Numbered from the stretch's first letter, positions 37,976 through 40,373 are shown. The stretch is 64,000 nucleotides of DNA from an uncultured Gammaproteobacteria bacterium (GCA_964399675.1 CAYNRK010000001.1:424-64423), one strand, 5' to 3'. The notes: generated by a model from the letters alone, not told the origin. A program made the numbers and translations.

Positions 37976-38167
37976 GTGGCAAAAAATCGGAAAAAGCCGC
38001 AGCCGGTTCAGATGAGAGAAGATGACGGAAACGTCATCGTGGTTCCTCTGCGTCGGCCAAAGCTTCGTGCTCGCATTCCGCCGTGTCAGCGGTTTCACAC
38101 TCGTGATCGTGATCTTCAAAAAGGTCACAGCCGTAGGTACAAGCACAAGGGCAAGCGAGGCTGGTAA
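37976..38167 (+). CDS. Small, very basic 63-aa ORF with a strong SD, at the edge of the high-GC island (hypothetical)
   Basis: SD aaggagg 6 nt before the GTG at 37976. It encodes 'VAKNRKKPQPVQMREDDGNVIVVPLRRPKLRARIPPCQRFHTRDRDLQKGHSRRYKHKGKRGW'. No homology recognised. Confidence 0.25.
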   Translation: MAKNRKKPQPVQMREDDGNVIVVPLRRPKLRARIPPCQRFHTRDRDLQKGHSRRYKHKGKRGW

Positions 38168-38593
38168 GAACTAAAGGAGGACGTGATGAATATCATCACA
38201 GCTAGCTGTGGAAGCACGTTCCAGAGCTTCCCAATTTAGGCAATGAATTTGTTTGTTGTCTGATAGGGATTCTTCTCTGATCATTAAACCCCTTTTTGGA
38301 GGACGAGAATAGATCCGGCTTTAAGGTTGGATCATAGGAGGCAGTATTTCATCAGTCTCTTGTGCTGATGAGATCACTAATTTGGTGAAAGAGTACTGTC
38401 GGTTTGATCCACGATGCAAACAAGGCTCCGGCTTTCTTTGCACCGATGCGATCACGCCACACCATTGATGCATAGCTTCGGCAAGCCACTCAATGGGATT
38501 CTCGACCTCCAAGAAGGGGTTTTAGTGTTAGACTGGAGATCGGTTTCAATAAGGAGGCCGTAATCCAAATCAATCTGTTCAGCCGGAGGACGT

Positions 38594-40216
38594 ATGGAGC
38601 GCATTTCCATTACCCAGGGAGTTTCGTGCTCCCGTTGCGCTGAGTCATACGAACTCGGCGGTGTCACCAACCACACAGGCGAAGAGCTGCCGTGGTTGTG
38701 CGTGACGCGCGACCACACCGACGCAGACAAGGCTGTCAAGGAGACGGTCTGTCAGCGATGTCTGGAGTTCAGGGGCACTGACTCGCTTCTCAGCGTCCTA
38801 CGCAAGCTGGACGTGGAGATCTCAACCAAGGTCATCCCGCTGCCAAGCCCGCGCAAGGCGTTGGTTCTTGGCGGAACAGTCAGGCGTGAAGTCAAGGGTG
38901 CAAAGCCCGGACTGCAGGTCAGAACACCAAGAGCCGTTCGTGGTACAGGCAAGCGTTCGGTCACGGTCGGCGGAAGAACAGTCGACATGGCTGACTTGGC
39001 TCAAGGTGCCAGGCGTGATGCGCCTGCATCGCAAAGGCGTCGACCTGCGCCACGAAAGCCTCGAGTCCGCGATGGCGAAGCATCCAGTTCGCTGGGCGAT
39101 TCGTTGCGCAGACAGCTCGCCGAGGCACTTGAGTCCGGTTCAGACCGTAAGCGTGAAGCTGTAGGTCGCCTGGCTCACACCATGGGTGTTCATCACGAGC
39201 TTTCCGAGCCTTTCTTCCAGGAGGCAGAGGCTCGGGCGGCAGAAGAGCGGGCTGCGCAAGAGGCAGAAAAGCAGGCTCGCAAGCTGCATCGGCTCCGGCA
39301 GTTCCGATCCCGGATCGGACACGCCCGCCGTAACCTCAACCTGGCGCGTGCGCGTACGTGCGAGCACGACGTGACCCATGAGGTCGCAGAAGTCAGACGC
39401 CACATCGTCGAAGCGTGCAAGCTCGATCCAGAGCAGCGTTCCAAGAGGCGGCTGACCGAAGAGGTTCTGGAAACCTCTGAGGCAGAGCTTGACCAGCTCG
39501 TTCAGTGCTTCTTCGATCGGGAAGCGTCTGGCTACCAGGGCAAGGCCGTTGTTCCGGTAAGGAACGATGGCGATCCCCAGGGTTGCTACAGCTCGACCAC
39601 GCTCGAGCCACGCAAGCCGATCACATGGCGCAAAGAGCCCGAGGCACGAACGCTCTTGACCGGAGGTTCGGTGTATGTCGACGGCAGGGTGCGGACGATT
39701 CGCAGTCTTGCAGTCGAGGTCGTAGGGCCTTCCACGCCCTTCCCAGTGCCGAACCCGGCAATCGATCAGCCGCCGGCTGGCACAAGTCACCGGGAGGACG
39801 GTGACCAGGTGCCGAGGATTCGGTACCCTGAAGGTGAAGAGTTCGGTGAGCGTCCTATCCTGGTCAGCTCGTCGGGTGATGACACGTGGGTTCCTCTTCG
39901 CGAGCGCAAGGAGCGCTGTTGCGTAGCGGATGCAAGCTGCAGCGAGCCCTTCTCGCACACGATCGTCGATGGGCTGTTCGCAGTCGGTGTCATGATGCCT
40001 GACGGACAAGGAGTTACGATCTTCTTGACTCTCATGGACGACGGCCAGGTGGTCAGCACCCTGCTCGACGACTTTGCTGCAGACCTGTTCACCGGTGACG
40101 GTGCAGCAGGGATGAAGTTCTTGGTTCGGCTGCCTGTCGAGCTGCGGAAAGCAGTCACCAAGGTCGATGCTGCTGTCGAGCTCGACACCACACCCGCTAT
40201 CCCCGCAACGCTCTAA
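38594..40216 (+). CDS. Hypothetical 540-aa protein with an N-terminal CxxC...CxxC zinc-ribbon, on a high-GC island
   Basis: SD ccggagga before the ATG at 38594. Balanced amino-acid composition, unlike the antisense ORF 39140..40258, which is R/L/C-rich. 'CSRC...(31 aa)...CQRC' at the N-terminus. No recognisable catalytic motif. Confidence 0.5.
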   Translation: MERISITQGVSCSRCAESYELGGVTNHTGEELPWLCVTRDHTDADKAVKETVCQRCLEFRGTDSLLSVLRKLDVEISTKVIPLPSPRKALVLGGTVRREVKGAKPGLQVRTPRAVRGTGKRSVTVGGRTVDMADLAQGARRDAPASQRRRPAPRKPRVRDGEASSSLGDSLRRQLAEALESGSDRKREAVGRLAHTMGVHHELSEPFFQEAEARAAEERAAQEAEKQARKLHRLRQFRSRIGHARRNLNLARARTCEHDVTHEVAEVRRHIVEACKLDPEQRSKRRLTEEVLETSEAELDQLVQCFFDREASGYQGKAVVPVRNDGDPQGCYSSTTLEPRKPITWRKEPEARTLLTGGSVYVDGRVRTIRSLAVEVVGPSTPFPVPNPAIDQPPAGTSHREDGDQVPRIRYPEGEEFGERPILVSSSGDDTWVPLRERKERCCVADASCSEPFSHTIVDGLFAVGVMMPDGQGVTIFLTLMDDGQVVSTLLDDFAADLFTGDGAAGMKFLVRLPVELRKAVTKVDAAVELDTTPAIPATL

Positions 40217-40308
40217 CGAGCGTTTCTGATTCTGGGTCCAAATCAGGTTTATGCACAACGTACTCTGGACCCCTTTTCATTTGAATATCTCTTTTCAGTT
40301 CCCGCCCG

Positions 40309-40347
40309 CACGCCCGGGCCCCACGCCCCGGGCCTAGAGCGCGGGAA
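40309..40347. repeat. GC-rich hairpin repeat (second copy): ttcccgc-ccgcacgcccgggccccacgccccgggcctaga-gcgggaa
   Basis: Shares the termini and the cctagagcgcgggaa core with the copy at 18460-18495. It sits at the 3' boundary of the high-GC island. Confidence 0.5.
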
Positions 40348-40373
40348 CGAGTTATTTAGATGCAAGGGCAAGC

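Follow-up and report, generated by a model that had tools for sequence, protein, structure and literature searches.

The locus described here raises the question of whether a stretch of deviant base composition lying between two conserved genes must be an import. It is part of a 64,000-nt stretch of DNA (hereafter the window) deposited under GCA_964399675.1 (CAYNRK010000001.1:424-64423) as an uncultured Gammaproteobacteria bacterium, where it occupies the gap between the divergent genes ftsK and rpoB. Its principal gene, the open reading frame (ORF) ORF540 (38594..40216, + strand), encodes a four-part protein of 540 aa with 19 distant homologues. A first-pass annotation had described the region as an island of foreign DNA. 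The present study suggests that it is not an insertion into this genome: homologues of ORF540 fill the same ftsK(-)/rpoB(+) gap in 12 of the 12 family members retrieved, and a probable promoter, a small upstream ORF (ORF63) and a putative leader RNA (RNA-1) are conserved alongside the gene. A recent foreign insertion is therefore not supported, and a clade-specific locus, for which vertical inheritance is the simplest reading, is well supported. Our preferred reading, to which we assign a probability of about 0.45, adds that this vertically inherited locus is a single operon in which the leader RNA controls a nucleic-acid-binding protein.

The window genome belongs to the Patescibacteria, or candidate phyla radiation (CPR), and has a GC content of ~41%. 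The clade that carries the locus is small and made up of ultra-small bacteria of the groundwater type. Among GTDB representatives, the best matches to its rpoB come from a metagenome-assembled genome (MAG) of the 'Parcubacteria group' (77%) and a MAG of Ca. Magasanikbacteria (68%). The gene order around the locus is recA(-), a RodZ-like gene(-), ftsK(-) (35479-37779), the 'island', rpoB(+) (40955-44215), and rpoC. The jump in GC content that the first-pass annotation had reported is evident, with 400-nt windows from ~38400 to 40300 ranging from 0.55 to 0.635, compared with ~0.41 for the whole window. Its extent, which had been given as 2.4 kb (37976-40350), needs to be narrowed: the strongly GC-rich part runs from ~38.4 to 40.3 kb, whereas 37976-38400 is only mildly elevated (0.45-0.47), and the steep climb begins near 38400. 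ORF540 itself has a GC content of 0.61 and a third-codon-position GC content (GC3) of 0.66, as against 0.43 and 0.35 for the flanking genes (GC3 0.34-0.35 for ftsK, rpoB and recA), and it is one of five GC3 outliers among the ~44 ORFs of the window.

Comparison of gene order provides the evidence on the age of the locus. An exhaustive phmmer search of 1.84 billion representatives yielded the 19 relatives of ORF540 (E = 1.5e-13 to 8e-4, 26-37% identity), and contigs were retrieved for 11 of them; together with a truncated metagenome member, L096, these make up the 12 family members examined besides the window's own gene. All 12 occupy the same ftsK-rpoB gap. The order ftsK(-), small ORFs, family gene, rpoB(+) is seen in L090, L092, L098, L100 and a 503-kb contig (JGI 3300072015), the family gene is followed by rpoB in L093 and L096, and in the short contigs L087, L088, L089 and L094 it lies directly upstream of the conserved rpoB leader and of RNA-2, a second structured RNA considered below. 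The genomes that carry these genes are 86-90% identical to the window in rpoB and ~70% in ftsK, while the family protein itself is 26-40% identical over partial alignments. Because homologues keep to the same gap in genomes whose rpoB genes are only 86-90% identical, the locus is old within the clade; it predates the divergence of the clade and is evolving very fast. None of 80 other rpoB loci, among them that of the nearest outgroup, L007 (rpoB 76% identical), contains a member of the family, and all homologues traced belong to the same CPR clade. Presence or absence in related genomes, which the first-pass annotation had put forward as a check, thus gives presence in all 12 members and absence in the outgroup, where the gene order is different. 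An empty site was not found in any clade member, few very close relatives having been sampled.

Far from being empty, the 426-nt spacer that separates ORF63 from ORF540 houses a conserved structured RNA of ~240 nt, RNA-1 (38283..38525, + strand), recognized by an inverted repeat, covariation and a covariance model. An inverted repeat at 38286-38310 / 38498-38522 (25 nt, 92% complementary) closes the whole RNA, and its closing helix, P1 (24 bp; core GGAGGACGAGA / UCUCGNCCUCC), is accompanied by hairpin P2, whose loop is UCUUGUG, by a long central hairpin, and by helix P5 and a conserved CACU. The tetraloop of the central hairpin is UCCG in the window and UUCG, CAUG or GAAA elsewhere. The tip of this long hairpin, with a UCCG or UUCG loop, is a 35-nt core, GAUGCAAACAAGGCU(C/U)CGGCUUUCUUUGCACC, that is near-identical in the window, L092, L089 and L096, and also in L007. 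Folded as a single sequence, RNA-1 has a z-score of -3.1. For five loci, RNAalifold predicts five helices comprising 61 pairs, of which 28 show compensatory changes; 90% of the cells in these columns are paired, compared with 39-46% when partners are slid by 1-3 columns, and none of 500 shuffles reaches the observed covariation. A covariance model, R1, built from this five-sequence seed recovers four members outside the seed (L096 and L087 at 101 bits each, L098 at 84 and L094 at 48). In the eight-sequence alignment A9, 92.8% of cells are paired (slid controls, 40-46%) and 45 of the 61 pairs show compensatory changes, a count that the fitting of the alignment to the model inflates somewhat. 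In all nine loci RNA-1 is on the strand of the gene; in eight of them it stops 55-255 nt short of the annotated start, and in L096 the two overlap. A U-run comes after P1 in six of the eight A9 sequences, L088 and L093 being those that lack it. Rfam 15 contains no match to RNA-1, even at E <= 10, and the best Rfam scores of both RNA-1 and RNA-2 are chance matches to small nucleolar RNA and microRNA models (E > 0.1). RNA-1 is thus a covariation-supported structured RNA that was previously undescribed.

Several further observations concern RNA-1. Of the three stretches returned by a metagenome scan with a 21-mer from its core, one was the new locus L096, another was once more the L092 contig, and the third was a fortuitous match within an rpsR gene. 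For RNA-1, neither an alternative fold nor a ligand was identified. A conserved micro-ORF (MQTRLRLSL) inside the RNA was considered and dropped, since its length differs (49 aa in the window, 9 aa in L092) and conservation at the RNA level is favoured by the compensatory changes; likewise, a 201-aa ORF over the conserved 35-mer in L007 is a spurious frame, the RNA hairpin alone being common to the loci. L007 (CAMTUG010000003.1) has, at 7222-7649 on the strand opposite to rpoB, a shortened RNA-1-like element in which a 24-bp closing helix (7392-7528) surrounds the same UCCG hairpin. A 107-nt repeat flanks this element on both sides, in copies that are 87% identical and that each have an inverted repeat of 18-19 nt closing them, and the interval 7222-7649 contains no ORF540 homologue and no Rfam match. 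In L090 (2407-2592) and L100 (4932-5114), the interval that corresponds to RNA-1 is occupied by a conserved acidic ORF of ~60 aa (…LGELI..FY.EFLA.YGDE.LAS.ATAAAI.DL…) without a family match.

The elements upstream of RNA-1 suggest how the locus may be transcribed. A consensus scan finds a sigma-70-type promoter-like site, TTGACA-17-TATCTT with a TG (37811..37839, + strand), which probably drives ORF63, RNA-1 and ORF540. Its TTGACA and extended -10 (TGnTA) align with those that L092 and L090 have at the corresponding position, shortly beyond the start of the divergent ftsK (alignment A4), and the site is probably a functional promoter. As this promoter is conserved and the same scan finds no promoter-like site in the 68 nt that separate RNA-1 from the start of ORF540, a single transcription unit is suggested. 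Three Shine-Dalgarno (SD)/start pairs described in the first-pass annotation are present, at 37976 (aaggaggagccGTG), 38186 (aaaggaggacgtgATG) and 38594 (ccggaggacgtATG). ORF63 (37976..38167, + strand) starts at the first of these and encodes a small basic protein of 63 aa (isoelectric point (pI) 11.7) with the conserved C-terminal motif P-x-Q-x-F-H-T-R-x-R-D-x3-G-x2-R-x2-K-H-K. Homologues are found at the same position in L092, L090 and L089, a basic 61-aa ORF precedes RNA-1 in L098, and only five clusters occur among 5.8 billion proteins; neither ORF63 nor the neighbouring small ORFs match Pfam, PHROG, PADLOC or NCBIfam. The region ahead of ORF63 (37845..37975, + strand) may form a structured 5' untranslated region (UTR), in which the ORF63 SD AAGGAGGAG is predicted to pair with CCUCCUC at ~37862. 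The interval 37800-37990 folds at -55.6 kcal/mol (z = -4.5), and sliding windows over 37801-38100 give z-scores of -6.7 and -4.6. Because the sequence of this 5' UTR is not conserved in L092 or L090, however, the case for it is a weak one. Between ORF63 and RNA-1, a mini-ORF of 17 aa (MNIITASCGSTFQSFPI; 38186-38239) with a strong SD overlaps a perfect 7-bp hairpin, GTGATGA-ATA-TCATCAC. Short ORFs occupy the same spot in L092 and L090, and as their peptides are not conserved, a hairpin is likelier here than a gene.

ORF540 is a zinc-ribbon hypothetical protein without a recognizable family. Its four parts are a C4 ribbon (aa 1-80), an Arg-rich disordered linker with a pI of 12 (aa 81-165), a helical Arg/Glu-rich part (aa 166-312), which the first-pass annotation had correctly described as such, and a β-rich C-terminal part that bears the family motif LPxPNxP...PKIxYPxGxxYGxxP (around aa 385-425). 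The ribbon had been read as two CxxC pairs 31 residues apart; the pairs are there, and the spacing is 37 residues (C12-x2-C15-x37-C53-x2-C56, encoded by 38627..38761, + strand). All 17 family members in which the N-terminal domain is present share these four cysteines without exception, and the strand LPWLVV between the pairs is also conserved (alignment A1). The relatives are mostly 340-670 aa long, one being a 148-aa fragment, and have in common the domain order, the four cysteines, the LPWLVV strand, the helix motif D...R....L...GTS..EL..L and the C-terminal motif. An AlphaFold2 model based on a 20-sequence alignment assigns a predicted local distance difference test score (pLDDT) above 90 to aa 10-70 and of 85-98 to aa 170-310; the rest of the model is poor, with a mean pLDDT of 64 and a predicted template modelling score of 0.38. 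With its conserved CxxC pairs and β-rich, confidently modelled fold, the N-terminal domain is assigned to the C4 zinc ribbons, and metal binding is predicted. The domain resembles the C4 zinc-ribbon nucleic-acid-binding domains of the NrdR, TFIIS/TFS and DksA type in having invariant CxxC pairs on β-hairpins within a small N-terminal domain. It differs from them in its 37-residue spacer, which contains the family-specific LPWLVV strand and a helix, and in that its best Foldseek matches are insignificant (IscU, E = 0.26; NrdR, E = 2.7). Given the C4 ribbon, the Arg-rich linker of pI 12, and the lack of a transmembrane segment or signal peptide, ORF540 is most likely a cytoplasmic nucleic-acid-binding protein. 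Its position beside rpoBC, taken as a hint of function, would amount to guilt by association only.

Searches for a known family agree with the first-pass view that ORF540 has no recognizable catalytic motif. Neither ORF540 nor its relatives match Pfam, PHROGs, PADLOC, NCBIfam or a PDB profile search, the nearest approach being one family member that matches Pfam Zn_ribbon_4 at E = 0.063. Foldseek comparisons of ORF540 with PDB and BFVD give best E-values of 0.26 and 0.003, with TM-scores below 0.15, and IMG/VR and collections of phages and plasmids contain no match. A word-indexed protein search found no relatives, whether the query was ORF540 alone or the alignment of the family; the candidate list of this search was probably saturated by low-complexity words. 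Three specific candidates were rejected. An HNH nuclease is ruled out by the lack of a conserved His or Asn column between the cysteine pairs (A1) and of an HNH Pfam match; an IS110/bridge-RNA recombinase, by the lack of PF01548 and PF02371 in ORF540 and its relatives and by a locus that is single-copy and syntenic; and a retron, by the lack of an RVT match in ORF540 or any homologue and of a PADLOC match. On the opposite strand, a 372-aa ORF (39140..40258) is a shadow frame such as GC-rich coding DNA usually produces.

Downstream of the gene, the first-pass annotation had placed the boundary of the island at a GC-rich hairpin repeat. A GC-rich palindromic hairpin is found at 40298..40348 (+ strand), 82 nt past the ORF540 stop, with a predicted energy of -31 kcal/mol. 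It cannot, however, be called a repeat, since the 64 kb contain, with up to 3 mismatches allowed, no second copy of either the window's version or that of other assemblies, and a generic scan of the window for GC-rich hairpins returned unrelated hairpins only. All family loci examined have a strong, sequence-unrelated hairpin (-20 to -59 kcal/mol) 0-170 nt after the stop, some of them canonical terminators with T-runs; the palindrome itself is unique to this strain and there is no shared boundary repeat. The hairpin is likely the transcription terminator of ORF540, although its tail, GAGTTATTTAG, is T-poor and a consensus terminator scan did not call it.

The same hairpin is where assemblies of this strain differ. 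Database records list 19 contigs (assemblies from ENA, JGI and Logan) that encode exactly this 540-aa protein, and the six retrieved places with an identical ORF540 represent six different samples. Four contigs from independent assemblies extend past ORF540 with the same flanks as in the window: L001 and L002 cover ftsK, ORF540 and rpoB, and L003 and L004 cover ftsK and ORF540 and end in the hairpin. Two others, L005 and L006, are 1.7-kb contigs with little beyond ORF540, their ends at 38532-38559 and 40277-40339 lying near the 3' end of RNA-1 and the hairpin. Compared with five other same-strain assemblies (up to 21.6 kb), the window differs only at 40305-40329, apart from one mismatch to L002 at 48813. 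The hairpin of L001, L002 and L003 is perfectly palindromic over 24 bp around a loop of 3 nt, GTTCCCGCGCTCTAGGCCCGGGCC-CAA-GGCCCGGGCCTAGAGCGCGGGAAC, at -59 kcal/mol, and contigs L003, L004 and L005 stop inside it. Since the assemblies differ only at this spot and the palindrome is perfect elsewhere, the window's copy is a degraded form, representing either a sequencing error in a highly stable structure or a site of hypervariability. The contigs that carry ORF540 alone, and those that end in the hairpin, could reflect a loss of coverage at this structure or heterogeneity at the strain level.

If the locus is not a recent import, its composition calls for another explanation. GC3 of the family gene exceeds that of the adjacent rpoB in 9 of 10 loci, by 0.06 to 0.36, in genomes ranging from ~33% to 55% GC: the values for family gene and rpoB are.66/.35 in the window,.57/.35 in L092,.85/.51 in L093,.83/.47 in L088,.71/.45 in L094,.33/.17 in L089,.54/.46 in L096,.73/.61 in L098 and.58/.52 in L100, and they are equal (.66/.67) in L090. 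A single recent import into the window genome therefore does not explain the excess. RNA structure inside the coding region was dropped as a cause, most sliding-window z-scores being mild (+0.7 to -2.7). The candidates are GC-biased gene conversion at a recombination hot spot and recurrent replacement from GC-richer relatives or elements. We infer that the excess is best read as the result of a locus-specific process, such as GC-biased gene conversion at a hot spot between two highly conserved genes, which would fit the data better than a single recent import.

The preferred reading of the whole locus combines these elements into a layout of conserved promoter, putative structured 5' UTR, ORF63, RNA-1, ORF540 and likely palindromic terminator, followed by the independent RNA-2 and the rpoB promoters. 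ORF63, RNA-1 and ORF540 would be co-transcribed from the promoter at 37811-37839, and RNA-1 would act as a cis-leader, its 24-bp closing helix and U-run stopping transcription before ORF540 unless the fold is prevented or remodelled. The effector might be a bound protein, either the basic ORF63 or the Arg-rich ORF540 itself, in which case the gene would be autoregulated, or a ligand. This arrangement would be reminiscent of gene-associated leader RNAs such as orphan riboswitch candidates and the autoregulatory leaders of the ribosomal-protein type: RNA-1 has a multi-helix fold with covariation, is on the same strand and 5' of one gene family, and has a helix and U-run that could terminate transcription. 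It differs from them in having no Rfam family and in that the 24-bp helix closes the whole fold, leaving no separate expression platform.

A number of observations weigh against this reading. The leader or attenuator role is deduced solely from the position of RNA-1 and its U-run. The subgroup formed by L090 and L100 has the protein without RNA-1, in which it departs from known gene-leader pairs and from which it follows that the RNA is dispensable for the gene. Conversely, the outgroup L007 retains an RNA-1-like helix and central hairpin without the gene, which is a better fit to a free-standing RNA. ORF63 is found in about half of the loci, tblastn detecting none in L087, L088, L093, L094 or L096. 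As to vertical descent, congruence between the family and rpoB trees is undemonstrated (Spearman 0.11, p = 0.63, at low resolution), the sister pair L088/L093 alone being clearly congruent. The ftsK-rpoB gap ranges from 2.7 to >8.6 kb, with extra ORFs in L092, L098 and the JGI contig and a 5.5-kb array in L093, and such variable content is as expected of a gene-exchange hot spot. GC-biased conversion is also awkward to reconcile with GC3 values of 0.83-0.85 where rpoB has 0.47-0.51.

Some of these points would be accommodated if the locus were instead the conserved core either of a GC-rich element that integrates or 'homes' site-specifically or of a hypervariable island passed repeatedly between related CPR genomes, always landing between ftsK and RNA-2/rpoB, with ORF540, perhaps together with RNA-1, providing its maintenance or integration function. 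This would generalize the foreign-DNA idea of the first-pass annotation, and we regard it as possible but unlikely. In favour of this reading are a family-gene GC3 above that of the host in 9 of 10 loci and the variable length and content of the gap, and the cargo ORFs are GC-rich too, L098 orf308 having a GC3 of.82 and the L093 array a GC content of 0.48-0.61 where the host has ~0.49. The occurrence of ORF540 alone on 1.7-kb contigs in two assemblies is what strain-level presence/absence, or a difference in coverage, would give. The M50 peptidase gene is missing at the equivalent site in L092, upstream of rpsF, so that the other GC3-outlier genes of the window, pyrF and pyrB among them, look like acquisitions. 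A direct repeat, 37955-37988 / 40354-40387, brackets the island as first delimited; it is weak, however (71% identical over 34 nt), and at chance level for such AT-rich flanks. Genomic islands and integrative elements at 'safe-harbour' sites, such as the Tn7-like elements beside glmS or a noncoding RNA gene, likewise combine deviant composition, a fixed position beside conserved genes, here including a small RNA (sRNA) gene, and variable cargo. The locus differs from these in lacking a transposase, an integrase and end repeats. No Pfam domain of an integrase, transposase, recombinase or replication protein was found in any locus, no tRNA adjoins it, and relatives are lacking from phage, plasmid and IMG/VR collections. 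Moreover, it has been seen at a single location, with no second copy in the window and no empty site in any clade member examined, and its promoter and leader are conserved together with the host flank.

Somewhat less likely again is a free-standing, structured RNA-1 that would serve as partner, guide or scaffold in a ribonucleoprotein with ORF540, ORF63 or both. The closed multi-helix fold, with its ends paired over 24 bp and a U-run, is like that of a discrete transcript, the spacing between RNA-1 and the ORF start varies from 55 to 255 nt, and a zinc ribbon with a linker of pI 12 in ORF540 and a pI of 11.7 in ORF63 are typical of RNA binders; L007, with the hairpin and no gene, points in the same direction. 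In layout, a structured noncoding RNA of ~200 nt with paired ends immediately upstream of the gene for a large protein recalls the IS110 bridge RNA and recombinase, the retron msr-msd and reverse transcriptase, and IscB with its omega-RNA. The likeness is one of layout only, since Pfam and Foldseek find no DEDD/Tnp, reverse transcriptase, RuvC or HNH domain in ORF540, which shows no similarity to known RNA-guided proteins, and the locus stays single-copy and syntenic. Nor is there a promoter-like site directly upstream of RNA-1 or an identifiable variable 'guide-like' loop, and the subgroup that has the protein without the RNA is as awkward here as for a leader. A bolder version, which we consider improbable, is that RNA-1 and the ORF540 family constitute a new, clade-confined RNA-protein machine: a self-maintaining GC-rich module that keeps to, or homes to, the ftsK-rpoB gap, with the RNA as partner or guide and a new protein fold without a relative in Pfam, PDB or BFVD. 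Finally, the region could have been an assembly chimera, or ORF540 a chance frame in GC-rich noncoding DNA. GC-rich DNA does give long ORFs on both strands, as the 372-aa antisense ORF illustrates, a GC3 of 0.66 is modest for 61% GC, and the hairpin region differs among assemblies. This reading is already refuted: the junctions recur in independent assemblies (both in L001 and L002, the left one in L003 and L004 as well), the 19 homologues share conserved motifs, invariant cysteines and gene order, and AlphaFold2 models two domains with confidence. Of the two outcomes that the first-pass annotation had named as counting against it, a well-known protein family and a chimeric assembly, neither is observed.

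The interval between the ORF540 terminator and the rpoB promoters contains a second RNA. RNA-2 (40376..40605, + strand), detected by fold, promoter scan and covariation, is a rod-like sRNA of ~190 nt (~40410-40596) with its own promoter-like site at 40376-40404 and a U-run terminator. Its fold has an energy of -84.9 kcal/mol (z = -10.2), and 30 of 49 pairs show compensatory changes. An invariant core, AAAAUCGCGAGCAU...AAAAUCUCUCUCCUCAUGCUCAAAC, is present in all nine family loci searched and in L100 and is not found in outgroups L007-L013; a CU-rich loop, AAAAUCUCUCUCCUC, is also invariant, and no complementary site to which it might pair was found in the window. RNA-2 resembles 6S RNA in being a ~190-nt rod with an internal loop and its own promoter and terminator, adjoining the RNA polymerase genes. 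It has no Rfam match, and it differs in that none of the Rfam 6S models is hit even at E <= 10 and in that the conserved CU-rich loop is more like an sRNA seed. Directly after RNA-2, at 40597-40605, the + strand carries a perfect DnaA-box sequence, TGTGGATAA (the complement of the DnaA box); L090, L094 and L096 have it at the corresponding position, as L089 very nearly does. Replication origin (oriC) function, for which the divergent genes, a local dip in skew and this box might have spoken, was considered and dropped, as the window contains 16 DnaA boxes where 16.9 are expected and the cumulative skew rises on both sides. Three DnaA-box-like sites cluster at 2636-2746, and another is at 34432-34440.

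Other features of the window and of related loci may be recorded here. The four further GC3 outliers of the window (0.57-0.74, against a background of 0.25-0.40) are a 130-aa ORF and pyrF (OMP decarboxylase) at 20928-22349, the M50 peptidase gene at 28025-28885, and pyrB (aspartate carbamoyltransferase) at 49897-50826. Two giant adjacent ORFs (1240 aa and 3273 aa) at 4673-18213 contain many internal repeats (families D3-D6, D8, D9, D11 and D13); giant repetitive proteins are common in CPR genomes. In L093 (GCA_964538435.1, CAZIDX010000005.1), the 5.5-kb array upstream of the ORF540 homologue (1-5560) consists of ~10 small ORFs on the same strand, several encoding paralogous membrane proteins that end in ...AWHKEKLRRAEADCxCPE. 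Each ORF is preceded by a repeat of ~100-190 nt with a long-hairpin core, CTCGGGACTCCATCTGGG...CCCCAGATGGAG, which has no Rfam match and gives the array a cassette-like layout.

CPR/Patescibacteria genomes are small and rich in unannotated genes, and very few noncoding RNAs have been described in them. The ftsK-rpoB locus adds two covariation-supported structured RNAs without an Rfam family, RNA-1, tied to an orphan protein family, and RNA-2, beside the rpoB promoter. It is also a case in which a compositional 'island' is shown by synteny not to be a recent import, which is a caution for the detection of horizontal transfer from GC content. The GC3 excess of one syntenic gene across genomes of ~33% to 55% GC bears on the choice between GC-biased gene conversion and recurrent transfer; if the RNA-protein machine were real, the same excess would mark a semi-autonomous element rather than host DNA. 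Furthermore, if RNA-1 and the ORF540 protein do act together, a hitherto undescribed RNA-protein system would lie beside the RNA polymerase operon.

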